Source of the DNA: Dipteris shenzhenensis
Taxonomy: Eukaryota
DNA: 64,000 nucleotides
Reading direction: 5' to 3' (one strand)
Assembly (NCBI GenBank): GCA_047967505.1
Contig: CM106538.1
Shown: positions 1,076 through 56,190 of the stretch, in pieces
How positions within the stretch are numbered: position 1 is the stretch's first letter
Layout of the letters: every line of letters starts with the position of its first letter
Program-made: the position numbers and the translations under genes
Notes under the pieces: generated by a model
The model's input: the letters and a program-made list of their open reading frames with translations, nothing else
Databases searched by the model: none
Told to the model about the DNA's origin: nothing

Positions 1076-2055
1076 GAGATTTGCTTCCTGTGCCTCTTTT
1101 TTTTTTCGTACTGTCCGTACAACTGTACGGACTTTTGTATAGATACGTACGGATCACCGTACGTTTCCTCTGTTTGCTGTCCAAGGCTTCTTGAGCTCTT
1201 TCGTCGCCACCAAGCGTCTCTTTGCTGTTCCCAGACTGAGGCGACTCCTCGTAGGCTCCAGCTGCAGCATTTTTGAGGTTCTATACAGTACTGTGGCCAT
1301 CAGTTGTCACTTTTGTACTTCCCTTCAGTAGACGCCTAGTTCAAGCGACGCTTCAGTGGATCCAGGCGCCTAGCTTCCGTGAACCTTCAGTGACCTCTTC
1401 ACAGTCGTCTGCAGGAGTCGTTTTGCTATCGCTACCTGTTCAGATCCCCACACAAGACACCTGCAGTTACGCACTTATTTCGAGGTGCCTAAGGGCAGTT
1501 CCAGTTACGCTCCAGTCGTTTTTGCACTTCAATCTGCTGCATCAGCTTTGTGGCCCGTTATACTCTATCTACTGAGGTCTTTTCAGTCTCAGCTTTATGC
1601 TTAGGGGACCATAAGCTAATACACAATCAATATTTGCAGTCTTTCACCTAAATTTCAGCTGGTGTTTGGGACAGTAAATCATACTTTTTCAGTTAAAGCC
1701 TTGAGGCTATACATTGGGTCAGATTATCAGACATTGAGTCACTTTTGCAGGACATTGAGTTAGATTATCCTTCATTGGGTCACATTTGCAAAAATTTCAG
1801 CAAAATTTGCGGCTTTTCTGCATTTGCTCTCTTTTTGGCCTATTTGCCTTCATTAAATTTGGGGCTTTTGCCAGATTTGCTGTTTTTGCAGTGAACATTG
1901 CCTGTCACAGTCACATTTGGGTTAGATCAGCATTTGCCCTTTGATTTGGGTCAGAAATTTGCAGATATTTGCTGTCTTTTTGGACAGTCAGCTTTTTGCA
2001 GTGATAGCCTTGAGGCTTTTGGGTTTTCAGGTCTTTTCAGGGTATCACATTTGCT

Positions 2056-5000
2056 ATGGCTGGGAACAATCAAGATTTATTTGGAGTTCTTCGTGAAGAT
2101 GATAAGTTGGATGGCACCAATTGTCCGATGTGGTCTTATCTCATGAAACATATTCTTGTTGCAAAGCATTTGTGGAATATTGTTTCTGGGGCTGATATGA
2201 GGCCAGCCAATGCTACAATGGTTGCCTCTACTGCTGGTCCTTCTGCAAGGGGTACTCCTCCTGATGCCTCTTCCTCTAGCACTCCTGTTGTTGCTCTTCC
2301 AACTCAAGAACAGTCAAGATGGGATGCAAGAGATGCAAATGCACATTCATGCATTGCTTTATCATGCAAGAGAATCATTATTCCACATATCCGGTCTTGC
2401 AGGACAGCTAAGGATGCTTGGGATAAATTGGCTTCTCTCTATCAGATTCGCAATGAAGCTCGTGTTGCATATTTGAGAAGGCAATTACAGGAAGTCAGTA
2501 TGAATGAAGGTGAGTCTATGGATGCATACCTGACAAAGGTCAAGGACCTCATGGAACAGCTTGCCAACATTGATGAGGTGGTGCCAAATTCACAGCTTGT
2601 TAGTACCACATTGAATGGACTGTCAGATACATATCAAGGGTTTGCTATAACCCTTCGATTAGTGGCCATGGGTAATCCAAACCACTATTCTTTTGATCAG
2701 CTAGTTACTTTGCTTTTGCAGGAAGAGCAAAGTAGAGCTAATAGACAAGCCATTATTCCTGATCATGCATTCGCTTCACAGTAGACAGGAAGATGCAAGG
2801 CTTCCAAGCCTATGGGCAAGCCAAAATCTGTGCATAGCAGCTGCAATTCCTCCCATGCATCTAAAAATACAGCAGATAAGTCAAAGAAGAAAAGATGCAA
2901 CTATTGTCGCAAGCCTGGACATGACATTTCAGAATGTAGAAAGCGCATTGCTTCGGAGAAAAAGAAAGCAGGATTGACAATTAATGCCTCACATGCTATT
3001 GAATCCCATGAGCCAGAAGATGCTTCACATGCACATGCTCTTCAGGATGATTGGGCATGGGCTGTCCATTGCTCATTTGATCCCTCCAAAGCTGATGCAT
3101 TCTTTACTGCTAATGATGCTCAGTTCTGGTACTTTGATAGTGGTGCTTCCAAGCATGTCACATCTTGCAGATAGTTGTTTCATTCTTTAGCTGATGCACC
3201 TCGAGGGAGGACTGTTACAGTGCTAATAATGCTTCATATGCTGTAAAAGGAGTTGGAGATGTGCAGCTCACATCCATTTCAAGCCATCCTGTCACTTTGA
3301 CCAATGTTCTTTTCGTGCCTAGCAATTGCTACTTCAGGTTTCAGAGTGATTTTTGATGGCTACAGATGTCTAGTTTATGATCTTCGTGATGATAATGCCA
3401 TAGTTCTCACTGGCACTTTGCAAAAAGGGTTTTATCACCTTGATCATCATTCAGCTTCACTTTCTATTGAAGCATTGGCTATTTCAGATTCACAGCTTGC
3501 TGAAACTCATCTTTGGCATGAGAGAATGGGCCATCTCAATTATAGAGCTCTTGCAAAGCTACATTCACAGCAGATGGCAAATGATGTACCTCGGACTCAC
3601 ACAGTTTCCAAACATGTGTGTGAGGGTTGTCTTTTGGGTAAGATGCTTCGATTTCCTTTTCAAAAGAATTGTCCAAAACTCTCACAAAGGAAATTGCAGC
3701 TAGTACACAGTGATGTCTGTGGCCCAATGAGGACAAATGCCATTGGGGGGTACAAATATTTCATTAGTCTCATTGATGATTTCACAAGATATTGCTGGAT
3801 ATATCCTTTAAAAGCCAAATCTGAAGTTTTCTTATGCTTTGAGAGGTGGCTGAATGTGGTTGAGAATGAATTAGGAAGCAAGCTTGTCACCCTCAACACA
3901 GATAGGGGGGGAGAGTATATGTCAAAGGAGTTTGATGCATTTCTGTCTTCACGGGGCATTATTCACTCATGCACTACTCCTTACACTCCTCAGCAGAAAG
4001 GAAAAACAGGTCCACAATGGAGATTGCCAGATGCATGCTTAAGGCCAAGTCTTTGCCCAATAAATTTTGGATTGATGCAGTAATGTGTGCCAACTATGTG
4101 CTTAATAGATCACCTACACGGGTGGTGAAGACTGTTACCCCTTATGAAGCATGGAAAGGCAGGAAGCCCTCACTTTCACACATGAGAGTTTTTAGGTCTC
4201 TTGCATATGTTCATGTACCATCTCAGCTGAGACATAAGCTTGATGACAAGGCAATCAAATGCATATTCATTGGTTACAGCCAGGAGAGCAGAGGGTATCG
4301 GTTATATCAACCAAATACTGGGAAGATTATTGTCAGTAGAGATGTGATCTTTGCTGAACATTCAGCTTCTCCTCTTGTGGACTGCAAAGCAAAGCCAGAT
4401 GTTGACATGTTTGATGCCTTTGAATCTTGGTTAGCTCTGCCATCATCAGAGGAGGATTTTCAGCAGCAACATGAGCCTCCTGCAGGCCCTCCACTAAGCA
4501 ATAATCAGCCACAACCTCATGCTGATTTGCAGGTTTCTCTTCCGGCACAAAATGATCCCATTACTCATGATGCAGTCATTGAAGAAAGAGCTGTCAATAG
4601 ACAGCAAAGGCAAGTTCCCAGATGGCTTCTTGATACATTGAGGGACAGCAAACAAGATCAGCCTTTTGCTGCCCGGACAAGATCAGGGAATAGACAGCAT
4701 GGTCACTTTCTTGAGTTTGCACTCCTTGCTACAGCTTGCAATGAAGAGCCTTTGTGCCATAAAGATGCTTTTGACAGCAAAGAGTGGATGGATGCAATGA
4801 AAGCTGAGTTACAATCTATTGCCAAAAATGACACATGGGAATTAGTAGATCTCCCACCTGGCAAACATGCCATTGGAACGCGGTGGGTCTACAAATTAAA
4901 AAGGAAATCTGATGGCAGCATAGATCGATACAAAGCCCGTCTTGTTGCAAAAGGGTATGCCCAATAACAAGGCGTTGACTTTGAGGAGACATTTGCTCCC

Positions 5001-39430: not shown

Positions 39431-39739
39431 AGCAATATTTTTTGAGCATGGTGTACATTGTCTTTAGATAGATAATTTTGTTGCAGCATTGTAGACCCCT
39501 TTAGTCACAAAACCACCCCACACAGATGCTATATTTTAATGACCATTTGACCACATTAAACATCTTACCAATTCAGCTTGCAAATATGTAATGTTTTGTT
39601 GACATTCCAATTAAACATATGGTTTATGAGCTCAGCCCTTTATTCACAATACTACCCTACATGTTTACTTAATTTTAGCTAGCATGCTCTCAATTAAACA
39701 TCCATAATGCATGCTTCCTAGAAGTAACATTTGAAAAAA

Positions 39740-40180
39740 AGAAGCCCAAATGTCCCTTTCTTCAAAGGAAGGGTCCTTTGGGCCTATTTTATTTATAGGG
39801 CCCATGTGGCCCAAAAGCCCCTTTCGTGGAAGAAAGGGATATTTGGGCCTCTGTTTTTCACATGGTCCATGTAAAGAGAAGGCCCAAAGAGCTCTTTCTT
39901 CGACAAAAGGGTTTTTCGGCTACTTTTTTTCAAATGAAAGCAGCTCAAAAACCCCTTTCGTTGAAGAAAGGCCAATCTTTGGGCCTCTTTGTTTTCCATG
40001 GACCATGGAAAACAAAGAGGCCCAAAGACAAACGTTTTTGCGACTGCAATCCATGGAAAACAAAGAGGCCCAAAGACCGGTTTTGAGCTGCTTTCATTTG
40101 TTAAAAAGCAGCCCGAAAACCCCTTTCGCCGAAGAAAAGCAGTCCATGAAAAACAAAGAGGCCCAAAGATCCCTTTCTTC
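39740..40180. repeat. Array of ~26-bp direct and inverted repeats (DNA-transposon subterminal-like)
   Basis: CCATGGAAAACAAAGAGGCCCAAAGA at 40003, 40051 and ~40144, inverted at 39976-40001, with degenerate copies upstream. Confidence 0.8.
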
Positions 40181-40415
40181 AATGAAAGTGGTTTTTGGGT
40201 TGCTTACATAAAAATGCATAATTCGTTGTTTAAAGGATTTGGTATATACATTTCCTATTGTTTTTTCCAATTATCTATCATTGAGATAAAGAGGTTATGA
40301 ATTGATAAGGGTACTATTAACAGTGAAGAATCGAGATATCATTACATTGCTATGAGTATAGGGATGTTGCCGTGGGTACGAGGATGGATTAGTACAAATC
40401 CTAGACTGTAAGTTA

Positions 40416-42477: not shown

Positions 42478-43803
42478 TTACAACTTTGATCTGAATACTC
42501 CATTCTTGCTCGTCCTGGGAGCCCCTTTCGGCTGCCCAATCCCTTCCAGCACGCTGTACTGCTTCCACAGTGGTATCACCCCTTGCAAATACTGCATAAA
42601 CTTCCACAACCCAACCCTCATCTCCACATTCCCATACCTATCCATCTTCTGCTCTGGGTACCCGATCCCGCATCCGAACAGACCTGGGGCGATAATACCA
42701 CAGTGAGCGTTGTAGGGATGATGAGGGGGCAGTCCCTCTATCCCCCGTGCGATCTCTCTCCTGTCAAACCCTGTTGCATAGACGACCTTAGTGCAGAAGG
42801 GGAGATAGTGGGCGATGGACTTGTCATCAGAGAAGGCGCGCACGAGACGGTCAGGTAATTCTCCGTGCAGATTCTCTCGACTCCACCTCGCTGTATCACC
42901 CTTCAACCCGGTATCATCAAACAATATCCAATCGTCCATATACAAAGCATACCGAAGAGGCTGTTTATATAGGTTGATCACCTTCTTCACAGGGGTGCTC
43001 TCTAGCAGGCTCCTTATAAGGATGACGGCAGTGTGAGAGGAGCCAAAGATGGCGACGGTGTCGGAGGAATTAATGGAGGAGGAGAGGAGGGAGAAGTTGA
43101 GGGCGGTGGTGATAGGGATGACTTGAACGTAGGGGAGGGAACGGTGGAAGGGGAGGGAACGAGGGAGAGCACCGGTGGCGAGGATCACGTTGGAGGCGAC
43201 GAAGGAGGAGGAGGAGGAGGAAGAGGAGGAGACGATGCATTCCCACTTAGCATCCTTCTCTCTCAGTTGCTCGACCTCTCCTTCCACACTCACCACCTTC
43301 TTCCTGAGCGTCTGCGTGATGTCGCGCAGAGGCTCTGCGGCCACATCCAACAAGCAAGTCTCCTGCTCGCCCATGTCCTCGATGGCATATCTCCTGCTGC
43401 GGCTGCTGAATTCGAAGGATTGACACTGACGATAGAAGCGGAGGAAGAGGCCGACGGTGGTATTGGAGGAGACGTATTTCCAATTGGTGCCGAAGTCGCC
43501 GACAGAGAAGGAGCGGTCGATCCAGAGGAGGGAGAAGGGGGGGATGGAGGAGTCGAGCAGAAGGCCGACGGCGGCGATGCCCGCAGGGCCAGCGCCTACG
43601 ACACACCATTGGTAAGAAGGAGGTGGCGCCACGGAGGTGGGTTTGGGAGCGACGGTGGTGGTGGAGGAGGAATAGGAGTTGCCACGTGTGGGTGAGGAGG
43701 GACAACCATGACTTGACGGAGCACTACTACGTCGAGACCAGGCGTTGGTTGTGTTGAGTGAGAGCAATGTCTTGGACATGGTTTCACGACAACTCTTGGA
43801 CAT
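42478..43803 (-). CDS. Intronless FAD/NAD(P)-dependent oxidoreductase (two-Rossmann, pyridine nucleotide-disulphide oxidoreductase/class B monooxygenase-like fold), 441 aa, with N-terminal extension and C-terminal SKL
   Basis: Longest intact ORF in the window. Motifs VVGAGPAG (FAD), VILATG, VAIFGSSHTA (second dinucleotide site), VVYATGF and PGLFGCG. GC/CpG-richer than its flanks. Confidence 0.9.
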   Translation of the reverse strand: MSKSCRETMSKTLLSLNTTNAWSRRSSAPSSHGCPSSPTRGNSYSSSTTTVAPKPTSVAPPPSYQWCVVGAGPAGIAAVGLLLDSSIPPFSLLWIDRSFSVGDFGTNWKYVSSNTTVGLFLRFYRQCQSFEFSSRSRRYAIEDMGEQETCLLDVAAEPLRDITQTLRKKVVSVEGEVEQLREKDAKWECIVSSSSSSSSSFVASNVILATGALPRSLPFHRSLPYVQVIPITTALNFSLLSSSINSSDTVAIFGSSHTAVILIRSLLESTPVKKVINLYKQPLRYALYMDDWILFDDTGLKGDTARWSRENLHGELPDRLVRAFSDDKSIAHYLPFCTKVVYATGFDRREIARGIEGLPPHHPYNAHCGIIAPGLFGCGIGYPEQKMDRYGNVEMRVGLWKFMQYLQGVIPLWKQYSVLEGIGQPKGAPRTSKNGVFRSKL

Positions 43804-44199
43804 GGTTGGTCACAGCAGGGATGTCCTCGCTCTCATATTGGATGTCTTTTCTCTCACTCCCTAAGCAAGTTCCTCTTGGTAATCTCAACAAAAAGAGGTG
43901 GGGAGGTGTAAGTGTCTCAAACTTCTAGAATTCCTCAACGATGTGTGACTAATGCACTAGTACTCGATAAGATCGAGTTGCCCCCCTTGCTTTTATAAAA
44001 AAATGCAAACTGTAAAGCTTTGGTGCATGATGAAAGGAGTTTTTTATGGATCGCATAAAATATATGATGGTGCATGAAAGGAGTTTTTTATGGATTGCAT
44101 AAAATATCTGATTCTTCAGTGGTGCAGAATTGAGAATCTTGAGGAGTGGCCAAAGAGGACCATAGGCATGAACACCTAACAAATAAGGTGGGACCCATT

Positions 44200-46545
44200 T
44201 GCAAAAGAAAACTTTGTCACTTGCTCCCACTATGTCACATGCATAGTTATTTCCAAGATGCACACAACCTGTCTTTCCACTCTGATAAGTGGAGAACCAT
44301 TCCCTATGGAGTAACATGGAATGAAGCACCAGAATCTAAAATCCAATCCTGGGAATATGCATCATCTGAAGTGGTAAGCAAGTCTGCAGGTAGACTAAAC
44401 ACGAAGAGAATGTTATTAGCATTATTATCAGTGGATCTTCATTTTTCCTTTGTCCTCCCTTGGAATCTCTTCCTTCTTATTTTCACCCCAATTTGCATTC
44501 TTTTTCTTATCCTTTTGCTCTTTTTTCAGCTTGTAGCAATCCTTTTTCATGTGGCCCTTCTTGCCACAATGGTAACACTCAATGTTCTGTGCCTTGGATT
44601 TGCTACAAGACTTGGGACTTCTCTCTGAACTGTGATCTGCCCCTTGCACCCTTGGTAGGGACTGGAGCTAAGCCTGCAGATATGTCTGAGGATGATTGGA
44701 ATGAGTTGGATGCATTATCAAAGTCTACTGTTAGACTTCATCTTGCAGAGTCAGTTTATTTCACAGTAGCAGTAAATGAGCAGACTACGGAAGATTTGAA
44801 TTATGTGCCACTTATGAGAAGGAAACTGCCTCTAATAAAGTTTACCTTATGAAGAGGTTGTTTGAGCTGTAGATGAAGGAAGGGGTCTCCATTGCTTCTC
44901 ACTTGAATGAATTCAATATTATTTTTAGCCAGCTTCAAGCTCAGAAGATGAATTTTGATACGGAGAGTAAGGCAATATTTCTCTTGTGTTCATTGTCACC
45001 CTCGTGGGATACCTTTCGTACAATTGTCAAAAACTCTGCACTTGGTGGAATGCTGTTTGATGATGTTGTGGGTAGCTTGTTGGCTGAGGAGATTAGACGG
45101 AAGTCTATGTATGGCAACAAGCAGGATACAAGAAGCACATTTCCATAAAGAAAAGTTTGTCCCATCAAACTTTTTAATGCTGAAAAACTCCTTTTCAGAC
45201 ATGGAAGAGGATGCCATGATGCAAATGAAACAAAATCCCAAATGCTAGTACTTGCAAGAGAGAAATCACACCAAATACCAGGTGCATCCAAATATGTTTT
45301 CCTTAATGAAGGATAGTGTCACCAAAACTCAAGGCTCAAAGCATCAAAACGCATCTGACTCATGTGCATATACTAGAAATCCATAGAGTAAATCTGGCCC
45401 AAAAGAAAATGCCAATTGCAATGGCAAAACAATGGTAATCCCAATGCCAATAAGTGCCAAAATGCCTCAAGCATAAATGTTGTCCATGAGCATATGCATC
45501 AACAAAATCTCATCCAAGAGATCATAGCACAACCTGTGCATCCACTACAATATGTCAAAGCTGTCTCTCAGCATAAAATAGCATTTGTGTGCTAAACATC
45601 CATCAATAAAGCATCCCACAAGGCAATTTGGGCCTATCAATGCATCCAACAAGGATCGTAATCCATCCAAATGGCCTGTAAAGCATCCATTGCAACCCAA
45701 TGCGAACCACGAATGAGCACACACGGACTATGACTAGAGTGACTTGCATAAGATATATCCAAAATCACGGCCCTACGGCAATGATCGCTAGTGAAAATAG
45801 AACTTGAGATGCTTCAAAACATGGGCGTCATTGCATAATCGGACTCAGCAAGACAATCTGCAAATATCTCTCTTCTACTGGAACTCCAAAATCCCAACCG
45901 ATGAATGGGAAACGGGGAGTCAACCCTTACAATTGACCTATAATCCAAAAATCAAAGGTTTGAACCTTTGAATGGATTTTTGACAAAGAAACATATGGTT
46001 CAGTGCCTTAGAGAGACGGAACTTCTCCAAATCTCTACAAAATTGTGCAAGGGATGACGGGTAGAGGTTTTTGGGCCTCCGGAATGCAATGGAATAGACG
46101 GTTTTTGAAATCGTGGTCCCAATCACTAGGTCCAACACACGGACCAAAAAATATTTTTGCAAATAAACATGTTTGTAAACACCACTGGAGTGTGAATGAT
46201 GAGCAACAGAGAAGTTTTAGGACCTCCTGAGTCTACCGAAACTGACAGATCTATGAATGGTTGCTTTAAACTCGAGTTCCAACACATTGGCAGGAAAAAC
46301 GTTGAAGCAGAGATAGGGAGTCAGAAATCCAACAAAATGATGCCAAATTCAAGAATGAAGGTGTTTTTAAACTCCTGATGTGCAATGGATACCAAAAGGC
46401 AGACAATGGTTCCTCACACCAATGAACAAAAAGGAATGCCCAAAAGGAAGCACTCTTTACCCAAAAAATGTGCTTTGCATGTATTAGATGGTAACTCACA
46501 TTTGTAAACCAGTAACCTCTCAAGCTCCTTGAATGAACAAACCCT
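44200..46545 (-). mobile_element. Truncated Copia 5' leader, gag and protease with an internal inversion
   Basis: Minus strand: IKKFDGTNFSLWK (~45140-45180), CYHCGKKGHMKKDC, WILDSGASFH. The central gag segment (44650-45135: DWNELDA...IASHLNEFN...LLCSLSPSWD) lies on the plus strand. Confidence 0.82.
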
Positions 46546-50889: not shown

Positions 50890-53800
50890 TGAAACCAAAA
50901 AGATAATTCTTTCACACACAAAGTCACCACTTAATCAATTGGAGAAGAAGAACACCATCACACCATAAAGCGACAGCAGACTGGGTACAATCTCCCCCCC
51001 TAGATGAGTGGCTCACGCTTCCTCATCTAGAGTATTTATGATTTTTCATAAAAGCACCAAGGAGCCAAAATTATCCCTCTTATCCAAAAATGAGAGATTT
51101 GCTTTACATAGCCATCTTAGGGCCCAAAATGATTTATGTCCTCAACAAAATATATTGCTCAAACTTGCAATAATTAAACAAATACAAAATTGGCCCATGG
51201 CCATATATAATGCACTGTGCGACACCTCGATCGGTACCCTCGCACTAACTCCAATCCTCGCTATGAGTTCTATCACCTGTACTCAAGCCGCCAATTACAT
51301 TAGTTATTAACAATCGATTGAACGAATCACCGAATCAACAGATCCCAATATAACCACGCTCAAAGCACAATAATCAAGCACAACACCAATGACACTAGCG
51401 ACATCAGTATTAACATGGAATCACCCACAATACCGAACATCTAGCATGGCAAAACACAAGCTAGTCAGGCGTCCCCAACTAACCACACAAAGTACTCCAC
51501 TAGGACCCCTGCGGCGTCCGGTGCGCTCCTATGGAGTTCTTTGCCATAGTCACACTTGACTAAAAATAATAATGTCCAAAGCAAGATAAATCATAAATAT
51601 AATTTTTGTAACATCCCTCTTGCTTGGATTGCAACTGACCTCAGTTGCGTGTTTGATTATAGGAACTAAGGAGGTCTGGAAAAGTTCGAAAGAACCGCTT
51701 AGGCATCCACTGAGCATCTTCTCTTGGATGGTTCTTAAATTTGAGCAAGTATTTAGTATAGACATTTCCTTTTTAGGTCGAGGTCTGTTGATGATCAACA
51801 ATGCATTCGGGTTCTAGAATTTCTTCTTCATCAACAATCAATGGGGCCTCTTCATAGATAGGATGAATAGGTAAAGGTCCTTTGAAGGGCTTTAAGAGGC
51901 TGATATGGAAAGCATTATGTATTTTCCAATTATCAAGTAATTTAAGCCTATAAGCTAGATCATTGATTTTCTGAATCACCTTGAATGGTCCATAAAAACG
52001 TGGTGACATCTTGATTACTGGCCATTTCTCAACACTCTTCAATCTTCTTTTCTCAATCCGAAGAAGTACAGAATCACCTTCTTTAAAGAGCATGTGTTTC
52101 CGTTTCTTATTAGCTTGTTTTGTGTACTTCTCTTGAGCTATTGCAATCGCTTCTTGAACTTCTTTGAGAATATTTTGATAATCATGGGTAAATGCATCTG
52201 CTTCTTTCACTCTATGGGTTAATCGTGTGATAGGAATAGGTAAAACCTTCCCATAGATAATCTCAAAGGGTGCTCTTCTAGTTGTAGAATGAGGATTATT
52301 ATTATAAGCAAACTGTAATAGATGAATGTATTTGTTCCAAGTCTTTGGTTGACTTCCTGCATAAGCTCTTATCATCCAGAATAGTACTGTTTGTAACTTC
52401 AATTTGTCCATTTGATTCTGGATGAAAAGTTGATGAGAAGTCTAATTTAGTGCCTAGATTATGAAATAATGCAGTCCAGAAGTTACTGCAAAACTTTGAA
52501 TCTTGATCAGACACTATAATCTTTGGCAAGCCATGATGAACAAAGATATGCTTGATGAATAAATGTGCAGCTTGCTGAGTTGTTAAAGTCTTCTTGCATG
52601 GGATGAAATAAACTTGCTTACTAAAGCGATCTATTATCGTCCAAATCATATCATTTTGATTCGCGGTAGTAGGAAAACCTGTTATGAAATCCATAGATAT
52701 TTGTTCCCAAGGTTGTGTAGGAATAGGCAAAGGCATAAGCAATCCTAGGGTCTTGCCTTTGTAACTCTTGATCTTCTGTCAAGTGATGCATTCGGCTACA
52801 AACTTAGCCACATCTTTTCTAATAGTAGGCCAATGGAATTCTCTTGCTATCACTTGTAAAGTGGCAGCCACTCCCCTATGTCCCATATATGGTGGTTGGT
52901 GCATTTCCTCCATTATAATTAGTCTAAAGGGTCGAGTGATGCATAATTTCTTTTGATAAAAGAGGTATCCATCATTGCATGAATAATACAACATAGGATT
53001 CCAATTGTTATTTTCTAATTTGTTTTATATATCAAAAAAGTCCGGATCCCCTTGATAAGAATTTTTCATACCTTCAAAAGGCTGGGTCTCTACAGCAGTG
53101 ATGTGATTAATACTTGGCTTTCTGCTAAGAGCATCAGCAACTACATTCTCCTTTCCAGGTTGATACTAAATCATGGGCTGAAAACTCTGTATAAATGATG
53201 CCCACTTGATGTGCCTATGAGATATAAGTGGCTGAGTCAACAAATGCTTGATACTTTGCTGATCAGTTTTGATAAGAAACTCAGATCCCATCAAATAATG
53301 TTTCCACATTTATAAGGCATGGACAACATCGGTTAATTCTTTATCATATGTGCTATAATTGGATTCTGCTGGTTTTAATTTTCGGCTCTCATATGCTATT
53401 GGATGTCCATCTTGCATAAGTACGGCTCCAATTCCATATCCACTAGCATCGATTACAACTACAAAGAATGGTCTAGAGAAATCGGGTAATTGCAACACAG
53501 GAGCTTGAGTGAGAGCTTCTTTCAAAGCTGTAAAAGATTTATCTTGACGCTCAGTCCATAAGAAATGCTTAGCTTTTCTAAGAAGGTCTGTCAATGGATG
53601 TGCAATGTATGCAAAATTCTTGACAAACTTTCTATAAAAGCTACACAATTCCAAATATGATATTAATTCATGTATATCTCGGGGTTTAGGCCATGTGATT
53701 ATGCACTCAATCTTCTTTGGATCTACTTGAATCCCATCGACGGATACAATGTGACCCAAATACTCTATTTGATTTTGAAAGAAACTACTCTTTTCAGGAT

Positions 53801-56190
53801 TTATGTACAATTGATTTTCTTTCAAGAGTGAAAAGACTAGCTTCAGATGTTCTTTATGCTCCTCAACATCTTTGCTAAACATCAGAATATCATCGAAAAA
53901 TAATACCACACAATCTTGGTGTTTAAGAAAGATTCGGTTCATCATCCTACTAAAAGTAGCTGGAGCATTAGTTAGTCCAAAAGACATAACTAAGAACTCA
54001 TAATGTCCCGTTTGAGTTCTAAAAGCAGTCTTGTATATATCTTCTTCTATCATATGAACTTGATGATAGTCGGATTTGAGATCTATCTTACTGAAGATCT
54101 TGGCCCCTTTCAATTTGTCCAAAAGATCATCAATCCTAGGGATTGGATATCTGTTCTTCACTGTGATTTTGTTTAGTGCACGATAGTCTATGCACATTTG
54201 GTAGGTTCCATTTTTCTTTTTGACTAATAAGGCAGGTGCTCCATAAGGAGAACTGCTGGGTCTTATCAATCCTCTCTCTATCAGTTCCTCCACTTGCTTC
54301 TGTATTTCCTTTTACTCTAGCTGGTTGACTCTATAAGGAGCTTTGCAAGGTGGAGTGTTGCCCGGTAGGATTTCTATCCTATGATCTTCTGGTCGAAGTC
54401 TAGGTGGTAAATCCTCTAAGACAGAAAATTGAGAGAGAAATTTTTGGTGCATAGGCTTAGTGTTTGGCTGAATAGCCGTAAGCGTATTCACCAAAATAAG
54501 ATATGTCTTCTTACATTTTCTAATTGCTCTTTTGGCTTGTGTGTGGTTGAGTAAAGGACTGACCTCAGATTTCATTGAGCTTTTCAAACATATTTCTTGT
54601 CTGTCCTTCTCTATCCACATCTGATGTGAATCGTAATCTATCTTAGGATTGTATTGATGCCTCCATGGCATTCCTAAGATAATGTCCACTCCCTGTAGGG
54701 GTGCCACTAGAAAGTCTCATGTATTTGTTGCAGATCGCCAAGAAGAAAGCTTCTTTTTTTGAACTTTAGAGCTCTCTCTTTAAAAAAGTAATAAATTCTT
54801 TAGAGAGCCTTTGAACCTTTGGGGTCCTTTGCTTTGTAAGTAATCAAAAGGAACTTTCACTTGAAAATGCTAAAGCGTCTGCGTCGCACGATGGCACAGA
54901 CAAAGGATGATGAATTTGCAGGACTGCAGTGGCTGCTATCTTCGATGGCAGAGTTCTTCGTAGGTCCGTGATTCGAAGATGCGTGACTCAACGTGAGCAG
55001 TAACTGTGGAACTACAGAGATAATTGGCGGCGACGAATTTCCAGACCTTTGTAAAGGCCTCTTTCCCAAGGGCGGTGCTATGGAGACTGCGAGACCGATG
55101 CGCGTTGCTGTCCGCGACGACACAAGAAAAAATCACGTGGCCGAATTTCTGCACAGGCGATCGAGGTACAGTAGGCTGGGTAGGCGGGCCGCACGCTAAG
55201 TAGGCTGGCAGAGTCCAGACCCGATGGAGATCCTCAGAAGCTGAGGCGCGCACAGTTATCGGGAGTGCGACATCTGCAAGCGGGGTGCTGTCATGATGTA
55301 CTACGGATTATCGCAATTGTGCAGAGCTTTGATGTGAGCCTAACTCCAAAATTCAGAGATGGTGGAGTTTTGGGTTGCATAATTTTGCGTCGGCTATCAA
55401 GGCGCAATGGTCAAGGTTGCTTGCACAAAACGATGGCGCTGAATTGTTATTTCTTTTTTAAACTTCTCTATCACTGCGCCCGCTCCCTCTCGTGCAACAA
55501 AATGACCACGGTCATAACCTCAAAATTTTCCCTTTCTTTCTTCCCGTGGGCTTTCTCTTCTTCGTCCTTCTCGAGAGAAACTTCTTATTAACTTTCACAT
55601 GAGCCACAAGGTAGCCTTCTTCTTTCACAAGAGCGTCACCATTGCTCTGATACCACTGAAACCAAAAAGGTAATTCTTTCACACACAAAGTCACCACTTA
55701 ATCAATTGGAGAAGAAGAACACCATCACACCACAAAGCGACAACAGACTCGGTACAATCTCCCCCCTCTAGATGAGTGGCTCACGCTTCCTCATCTAGAG
55801 TATTTATGATTTTTCATAAAAGCACCAAGGAACCAAAATTATCCCTCTCATCTAAAAATGAGGGATTTGCTTTACATAGCCATCTTAGGGCCCAAAATGA
55901 TTTATGTCCTCAACAAAATATATTGCTCAAACTTGCAATAATTAAACAAATACAAAATTGGCCCATGGCCACATATAATGCACTGTGCGACACCTCGATC
56001 GGTACCCTCGCACTAACTCCAATCCTCGCTATGAGTTCCATCACCTGTACTCAAGCTGCCAATTACATTAGTTATTAACAATTGATTGAACGAATCACCG
56101 AATCAACCGATCCCAACATAACCGCGCTCAAAGCACAATAATCAAGCACAACACCAATGACACTAGCGACGTCAGTATTAACATGGAATC
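50890..56190 (-). mobile_element. Ty3/Gypsy chromovirus-type LTR retrotransposon lacking gag, with truncated 5' LTR
   Basis: 3' LTR 50890-51613 with adjacent PPT. The 5' LTR (55657-56190) is near-identical but cut short. Met-i PBS at 55644-55655. Protease tail DIILGMPW, RT (MCIDYRALN, FFDDIL), RNaseH (DASGYGIGAVL), integrase (WEQISMDFI, FYGPFKV), chromodomain (KYLLKFKNHP...QW). Confidence 0.93.
51640..54715 (-). pseudogene. Gypsy pol (partial PR-RT-RH-IN-chromodomain), disrupted
   Basis: ORFs 54312-54707, 53310-54293, 52779-52994, 52302-52742 and 51773-52411 lie in Gypsy domain order. Confidence 0.92.

Follow-up and report, generated by a model that had tools for sequence, protein, structure and literature searches.

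The type 1 peroxisomal targeting signal (PTS1) is borne at the extreme C-terminus of its cargo, and the tripeptides SKL, PKL, AKL, ARL and ANL all stand on the list of validated plant signals given in PMC3427985. According to Deng et al. 2022 (PMC9542071), the core upstream influence on a PTS1 is exerted by positions -6 to -4: a basic-nonpolar-basic pattern there strongly enhances the signal, acidic residues inhibit it, and these positions, with a nonpolar -5, outweigh charge alone; SKL> and PKL> are given there as strong tripeptides that a polar upstream pattern cannot inhibit. Some flavoproteins combine two addresses, as PMC3716789 reports for NDA and NDB of Arabidopsis, rice and Physcomitrella, which are dual-targeted to mitochondria and peroxisomes by an arrangement that is old in land plants. 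The analysis presented here concerns P0001, a flavoprotein encoded on the minus strand of a 64,000-nucleotide stretch of the fern Dipteris shenzhenensis (GenBank assembly GCA_047967505.1, contig CM106538.1; the whole stretch is called the window below), which ends in SKL and is, judged from its sequence, a new candidate peroxisomal enzyme with a probably genuine PTS1. The sole named relative is AgnR1 ("monooxygenase AgnR1"), a paralogue of the P0001 family, and the agnestin paper reports that a knock-out of agnR1 gave no role in agnestin biosynthesis (PMC6335632). Literature searches by family name, locus tag and motif returned that paper only, one on PTS1, ferns and gene transfer had nothing on the family among the papers listed, and these searches gave no paper on the clade to which P0001 belongs; the literature searched held no substrate for any superfamily member, be it bacterial, fungal or plant.

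The C-terminus of P0001 reads ...VIPLWKQY SVLEGIGQPKGAPRTSKNGVFRSKL and is followed by TAA. An earlier reading made from the sequence only had described a 25-residue tail ending in SKL after PLWKQY and had taken SKL for a PTS1; the tail is exact by script coordinates, and SKL> is on the validated plant list (PMC3427985). The best explanation of this tail, regarded as reasonably probable, is a working PTS1 through which the enzyme is sent, at least in part, to peroxisomes. A tripeptide was taken as valid if it is among the 48 that Table A1 of PMC3427985 gives as experimentally validated in plants, and validated ends and their background were counted in 380 family proteins. Among the 18 proteins that carry the tail, ten have a validated tripeptide at the C-terminus: in four it is PKL and in three AKL, and SKL, ARL and ANL occur in one protein each. 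This count is not to be read as a probability, since these 18 proteins share kinship; an eleventh ends in AML, which is absent from the list. Sliding the frame by 1, 2, 3, 4 and 5 residues on the same 18 proteins gave 0, 1, 0, 0 and 0 validated tripeptides. Validated C-termini were found in none of 103 non-tail hits, in 5 of 148 profile-search representatives and in 4 of 106 new paralogues, and of all tripeptides that the 380 proteins contain, 1.26% belong to the validated set. The linker from GIGQPKG to the tripeptide varies from 0 to 26 residues and the five valid tripeptides are spread across four subclades, as expected if selection acts on the signal and not on an exact sequence.

The residues just upstream of the tripeptide were also compared. 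KPR or KPK occupies -6 to -4 in 5 of the 18 tail-bearing proteins, and -4 is basic in nine of the ten that have a valid tripeptide. In the window, V stands at -6, F at -5 and R at -4, and the last 14 residues include four basic and no acidic ones. The sequence-only reading had held that upstream basic residues enhance the signal, which is an older view, given that in PMC9542071 charge alone counts for less than positions -6 to -4 and a nonpolar -5. In an AlphaFold2 model, the predicted local distance difference test score (pLDDT) averages 48 over residues 431-440, and no secondary structure is placed past residue 415; the C-terminus is predicted to be free and accessible, because the last seven residues are modelled with pLDDT below 50. 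As far as sequence can tell, the SKL of the window appears to have every property of a working PTS1. P0001 shares with canonical plant PTS1 cargo, the ligands of PEX5, a valid tripeptide, a basic -4, a nonpolar -5 and a flexible end, and its related proteins carry alternative valid tripeptides, as canonical cargo do. Unlike such cargo, P0001 belongs to an uncharacterised family, with no seed-plant member among the named matches listed, and its signal sits on a clade-specific extension whose proximal half is conserved.

If the signal works, the tail would be a module of two parts, a conserved SVLEGIGQPKGAP and a flexible linker ending in the PTS1, whose SKL is preceded by F at -5 and R at -4. 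The protein would first fold and bind flavin adenine dinucleotide (FAD) in the cytosol, its exposed C-terminus would then be bound by the tetratricopeptide repeat (TPR) domain of the PEX5 receptor, the holoenzyme would be imported into the peroxisomal matrix, and an NAD(P)H- and O2-dependent flavoenzyme would then work beside catalase.

The same data bear on the improbable alternative that the signal is a product of chance or is decaying, in which case the proximal GIGQPKGAP would be structural or catalytic, the end would drift, SKL would be neutral and the protein cytosolic. Such drift would accommodate the varied fern ends (SKL, PKL, TKF, NGI, NPA, GRY, VTT), the chance of about 1% that any tripeptide is a valid PTS1, and a proximal tail that is far better conserved than the end and is modelled with pLDDT 77 over residues 421-430. 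However, ten of 18 is well above both the background and the slid controls, the upstream pattern co-varies with the tripeptide as in functional PTS1 domains, and the tripeptide here is SKL, the strongest known, with no acidic residue upstream.

The tail itself is a character of one clade. A survey of the core-end motif covered 269 proteins, of which 128 matched, and in 109 of these at most six residues follow the motif; the remaining 19 comprise 18 proteins with an IGQP tail, six from ferns and 12 from elsewhere, and one bacterial-like protein with an unrelated tail. The extension spans 14-40 residues, its proximal half (GIGQPKGAP) is conserved, and I422, G423, Q424 and P425 are invariant among 16 tail-bearing proteins (alignment A2). 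In a prokaryotic scan that took one genome per species, the best 80 of 255 relatives were kept and the core end was located in 75 of them. The protein ends 16 residues after VGLWKF in 65 of these 75 loci, against 39 residues in the window, so that most bacterial homologues stop two residues past the equivalent of the Y of PLWKQY, and the point taken earlier for the apparent end of the core was right to within two residues. Neither an IGQP tail nor a validated PTS1 tripeptide end occurs in any of the 75 loci (0/75 for each), and in L062 and L071, where the bacterial tails are longest, the tail sequence is an unrelated one. The extension, whose presence in prokaryotic homologues the earlier reading had proposed to check by alignment, is absent there.

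A maximum-likelihood tree was built from 58 rows hand-picked from the 380 proteins, namely six fern, 12 other tail-bearing, 31 bacterial-type and nine AgnR1-like outgroup rows, in which the bacterial label was given by name, or by length together with absence of the tail. The 18 tail-bearing rows form one clade, with a support of 99 in the Shimodaira-Hasegawa-like approximate likelihood ratio test (SH-aLRT), and the ferns form one group within it (96). A search with the tail region only (residues 385-441) returned nine proteins, all previously in the set; a profile search of 1.84 billion representatives gave no extra tail-bearing sequences, with the whole tail clade collapsed into P0077; a metagenome scan with P0008 found four distant loci only, at 33-42% identity; and protein-atlas look-ups gave distant clusters only. 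Compared across these sequences, the tail proves to be a real C-terminal module specific to one clade. The simplest reading is that the PTS1 was ancestral to the whole tail-bearing clade and was lost by truncation in the copies of Pteridaceae, the family of both Ceratopteris and Adiantum.

Several observations weigh against a working PTS1 in P0001 and are best considered together. Only two of the six fern proteins keep a validated tripeptide, SKL in the window and PKL in the nearest relative, P0002; the two Ceratopteris proteins, that of Adiantum nelumboides and P0011 end in NGI, GRY, NPA and VTT, the last belonging to P0011. Contigs of related organisms, from three runs, diverge from the window at 42510 and end in ...NGVLKTKF*, which is not validated, although this was read by hand translation from a 30-letter loose end. 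The eukaryotic origin of the 12 non-fern tail-bearing sequences is itself an inferred one. Finally, an N-terminal extension of 62 residues, which the earlier reading had overlooked, could compete with the PTS1, and its composition is transit-peptide-like, so that it could take the protein to plastids or mitochondria while the C-terminus is still to be synthesised. Whether plant orthologues keep such an end had been named earlier as a check: PTS1-type ends are kept in ten of the 18 clade members and in two of the six fern proteins, with TKF in the related contigs, so that the tripeptide is not conserved across ferns. The homologous fern tails read ...KNGVFRSKL, ...DGVLKPKL, ...ENGVTT, ...SANGI and ...IANGNPA, and the four Pteridaceae-type copies look as if cut just past NG, with the PTS1 absent.

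In the case of the N-terminus, the 67 residues before VVGAGPAG include 26 Ser/Thr, seven Arg/Lys and one acidic residue, and the 31 bacterial rows have a median of nine residues before the GxGxxG motif. The main rival reading, conceivable yet rather unlikely, is that targeting is dual or dominated by the N-terminus, with the extension acting as a mitochondrial or plastid transit peptide while SKL shares the task or adds little. This would fit the Ser/Thr-rich composition and other members of the tail clade, in which a presequence-like N-terminus and a PTS1 occur together (P0025, which begins MLCQLRSLTRTRGKPF... and ends in PKL; P0006-P0009 are also cited), as well as the Pteridaceae copies P0003-P0005, all of which have Arg-rich N-termini (MLRQVRRNM..., MRRVAHRQV...) and lack a PTS1. 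The plant type II NAD(P)H dehydrogenases provide a precedent: in PMC3716789, NDA and NDB are, like P0001, flavoproteins with an N-terminal extension and a C-terminal PTS1, a likeness in targeting logic only. On the other hand, and unlike that system, the extension of P0001 is unconserved in its nearest relative: P0002 lacks it, its first residue aligning with residue 54 of P0001, and where P0002 has its two Met residues the window encodes Lys and Ala. In related contigs, indels of 13 and 4 bases, as well as larger skips, occur between 43620 and 43810, so that the frame is not kept. Because the extension is not conserved and the Met of P0002 is absent, the extension may once have been a 5' untranslated region (5' UTR), into which an upstream in-frame ATG has brought translation.

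The closest relatives outside the tail clade are bacterial. By record title, the best 80 prokaryotic loci comprise 25 of Legionella type, eight of Coxiellaceae, seven of Chlamydiae (Parachlamydia, Simkania and Neptunochlamydia), 30 of unclassified Gammaproteobacteria and ten others, and half of them (40/80) belong to Legionellales, Coxiellaceae or Chlamydiae. Bacteria of these three groups live within protists, and gene exchange with their hosts is known. Their homologues are the closest proteins outside the tail clade, with a core that is 41-54% identical to P0001 over residues ~63-417; they measure 345-357 residues and lack the N-terminal extension and, in the 75 loci with a located core end, the tail and a PTS1. 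The free tree places the tail clade among the bacterial rows, with backbone support of 83-94, unstarred, and a tree that forces the 31 bacterial rows together is no worse, its log-likelihood being 0.59 higher with p = 0.499 in the approximately unbiased (AU) test. A transfer from bacteria to eukaryotes was not adopted as the direction, as the constrained tree is equally good, and a transfer between the domains could run either way; "bacterial-type" should be read as similarity (41-54% identity), not as demonstrated history. The earlier proposal that a bacterial-type enzyme gained peroxisomal import is accordingly sound in so far as the tail is absent from bacteria, but it had assumed the direction, on which the AU test is even (p = 0.50).

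The gene neighbourhoods of 16 bacterial loci are unconserved and gave no functional clue. In three loci of Legionella and Tatlockia (L054, L055 and L029) the gene lies between a divergent RadA-like ATPase, with KaiC, zinc ribbon and Lon_C domains, and a polyprenyl synthetase, while L048 has a divergent open reading frame (ORF) that is about as long but matches nothing in Pfam and, downstream, a SnoaL-like protein. In the closest gammaproteobacterial metagenome-assembled genomes (L002 and L010), a LysR regulator and a 6-pyruvoyl-tetrahydropterin synthase adjoin the gene, and a tRNA synthetase is also found among the bacterial neighbours. Look-alikes of the family make up a protein-atlas cluster in which 55% is viral, mainly Nucleocytoviricota; a pattern scan of viral contigs found no relative.

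The AgnR1-like eukaryotic oxidoreductases, known from fungi, mosses, Selaginella and a green alga, are homologous to P0001 over the whole core, with 35% identity (E = 1e-58) for the Selaginella protein. Their nine rows split from the other 49 with an SH-aLRT of 100, which leaves P0001 outside the AgnR1-like clade; they lack the IGQP tail, and validated PTS1 ends are rare among them (the 4 of 106 given above). Four AgnR1-like proteins of Selaginella moellendorffii (P0187 and P0272-P0274) end in SKL, while P0304 of Sphagnum fallax and the JGI entries P0284 and P0286 end in IKL, a validated plant PTS1; most fungal members are without a PTS1-type end.

At the curated gathering cut-offs of Pfam, which served as thresholds, P0001 stays just below Pyr_redox_2 (PF07992; 24.4 against 26.1 bits) and NAD_binding_9 (20.3 against 21.8 bits), although many of its relatives do carry a precomputed Pyr_redox_2 domain; nothing in NCBIfam came close to its cut-offs, and sequence and profile searches of PDB gave weak matches only, the best being dihydrolipoyl dehydrogenase with a profile (E = 6e-4). 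The AlphaFold2 model, built from an 80-sequence alignment, has a mean pLDDT of 88.6 and a predicted template modelling score (pTM) of 0.84, with pLDDT below 50 at residues 1-37, 40-45 and 435-441. In the same alignment G70 and G72 of GAGPAG are invariant and G75 nearly so, and in GSSHTA G254 is invariant and S256 and H257 are nearly invariant; across the alignments P0001 retains all family-invariant residues. GSSHTA is assigned to NAD(P)H binding by inference from its place in the predicted fold.

A structure search with the model found two Rossmann-type domains, and its neighbours are flavoproteins with two dinucleotide-binding domains. These include small bacterial flavin monooxygenases of class B (SMFMO, 4a9w/4c5o; Z 24.4-24.8), putrescine, cadaverine and ornithine N-hydroxylases (Z 22.4-24.2, with 24.2 for putrescine N-hydroxylase 7us3; DfoA, PvdA and SidA are also among the neighbours), and the bacillithiol disulfide reductase YpdA (7a76; Z 23.0-23.5), at root-mean-square deviations of 3.0-4.3 A over ~300-340 residues and at a sequence identity of 10-17%. 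The N-terminal GxGxxG is common to P0001, the class B monooxygenases, the N-hydroxylases and YpdA, and GSSHTA of P0001 presumably resembles the GxGQSA of the N-hydroxylases, with ATGF standing where these have ATGY. The modelled fold indicates the use of FAD and NAD(P)H but does not point to one reaction, because monooxygenases and a disulfide reductase are tied in Z. The suggestion of an oxygen-using flavoenzyme hence finds favour with the class B monooxygenases (Z 24-25) and is checked by the tie with YpdA (Z 23.5).

The gene belongs to a fern genome. The closest relative of P0001 is the Logan protein P0002, at 80% identity, and among named proteins those that match best are hypothetical ones from two fern genera, Ceratopteris (C. 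richardii) and Adiantum. Four of these are 65-73% identical to P0001, and a truncated entry of A. capillus-veneris is 64% identical; the Ceratopteris and Adiantum matches sit on contigs of 1.4 to 162 Mb. As fern proteins are the best matches, the window bears retrotransposons and the contigs of the relatives are large, the sequence evidence says that the gene is nuclear, from a fern-like genome, and not contamination. The surrounding region is plant-type and rich in retrotransposons. By ORF list and script check, 42478-43809 of the window holds 443 codons without a stop on the minus strand; the ATG of P0001 starts at 43803, and the preceding in-frame stop lies at 43810-43812. The GC content of the ORF is 55.6% (68% at third codon positions), against 38-42% in the 5 kb on each side. 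Contigs of related organisms are colinear with the ORF from 42510 to ~43944 and show no intron-like joint. Of 178 differences to these contigs, 40 were classified by hand, and 22, 14 and 4 of them fall at codon positions 3, 1 and 2, respectively. With an intact ORF of 441 codons and differences biased towards position 3, the gene appears to be under constraint, in a manner that fits purifying selection. The features of the locus are collected in Table 1.

Table 1. Coordinates of the P0001 gene and its parts in the window.
Feature	Position	Strand	Basis or remark
Flavoprotein gene P0001, 441 codons and stop, intronless	42478..43803	-	Two-domain, FAD/NAD(P)-binding
TAA stop adjoining SKL	42478..42480	-	Script
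SKL, candidate PTS1 tripeptide, C-terminal	42481..42489	-	Script
Whole 25-residue tail SVLEGIGQPKGAPRTSKNGVFRSKL	42481..42555	-	Translation
Distal tail RTSKNGVFRSKL, variable, predicted disordered	42481..42516	-	pLDDT and comparison
Proximal tail SVLEGIGQPKGAP, conserved	42517..42555	-	Alignment of tail-bearing proteins
PLWKQY, end of the shared core	42556..42573	-	Alignment; directly before the tail
GSSHTA, putative second nucleotide-binding motif (NAD(P)H-type), degenerate, residues 254-259	43027..43044	-	Script
Nine-serine run in a core loop	43204..43230	-	Variable among relatives; alignment gapped there
GAGPAG, first dinucleotide (FAD) motif GxGxxG, residues 70-75	43579..43596	-	Script
N-terminal extension, 62 residues ahead of conserved SYQW	43618..43803	-	Script

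It is very improbable that the ORF is an unexpressed relic, that is, a recent insertion or retrocopy among retrotransposons whose tail would have no cellular effect. Its intronless, GC-rich island within poorer DNA and its flanks of transposon fragments would suit such an origin, as would the loss of the start codon position used by the nearest relative; no run on record as RNA contains the gene, which is not evidence either way. Against this stand the 441 intact codons with every family-invariant residue, the third-position bias of the differences, orthologues on chromosomes of two further fern genera, and small assemblies, guessed to be RNA, that span the gene body of the relatives but not its flanks.

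Some further features of the region were recorded. The read layout marks 43189-43238, around the serine run, as a repeat, and one contig of a related organism lacks 18 bases at 43131. A fragmented copia-type long terminal repeat (LTR) retrotransposon occupies window positions 2014-4964 on the plus strand in three ORFs of different frames, with Pfam matches to Retrotran_gag_2, gag-pre-integrase, integrase core, an SH3-like domain and the start of RVT_2, and a gypsy-type pol fragment, also of three ORFs, lies at 51776-54311 on the minus strand (RVT_1, RNase H, integrase core and a Tf2-1-like SH3). At 39665-40300 a short unit recurs in the ORF translations of both strands (...NKEAQR..., ...GPLCFPW...), which suggests a tandem repeat whose unit is a few tens of bases long. 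Two short ORFs that lie about 0.6-1.3 kb upstream of the gene, at 44428-44667 (minus strand) and 44873-45148 (plus strand), resemble pieces of retrotransposon gag, one of them bearing the CCHC zinc-knuckle-like CYHCGKKGHMKKDC; two other plus-strand ORFs near 44428-45148 had no Pfam match.

A wider scenario can be offered tentatively, and it is at present rather doubtful. The tail-bearing proteins would form an uncharacterised eukaryotic clade, class-B-like and nearest in kinship to the proteins of bacteria that live inside protists, which gained the GIGQPKGAP and PTS1 module after a transfer in one direction or the other, and ferns would be re-sorting the enzyme, to peroxisomes where SKL or PKL is kept and to mitochondria in Pteridaceae, whose four copies have a tail that stops after NG and, in three cases, an Arg-rich presequence. 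If true, this would be a natural case of one enzyme being redirected to another organelle among closely related lineages.

The understanding of PTS1 import itself is unchanged by P0001; the signal class is well known and the enzyme family is unstudied. Should its import be borne out, an NAD(P)H/FAD enzyme would be added to the peroxisome proteome of ferns and to that of the other organisms that bear the tail. The tail clade also offers a compact test case for the addition of a targeting signal to an enzyme shared with intracellular bacteria and, among ferns, for the loss of such a signal or its swap for an N-terminal one.

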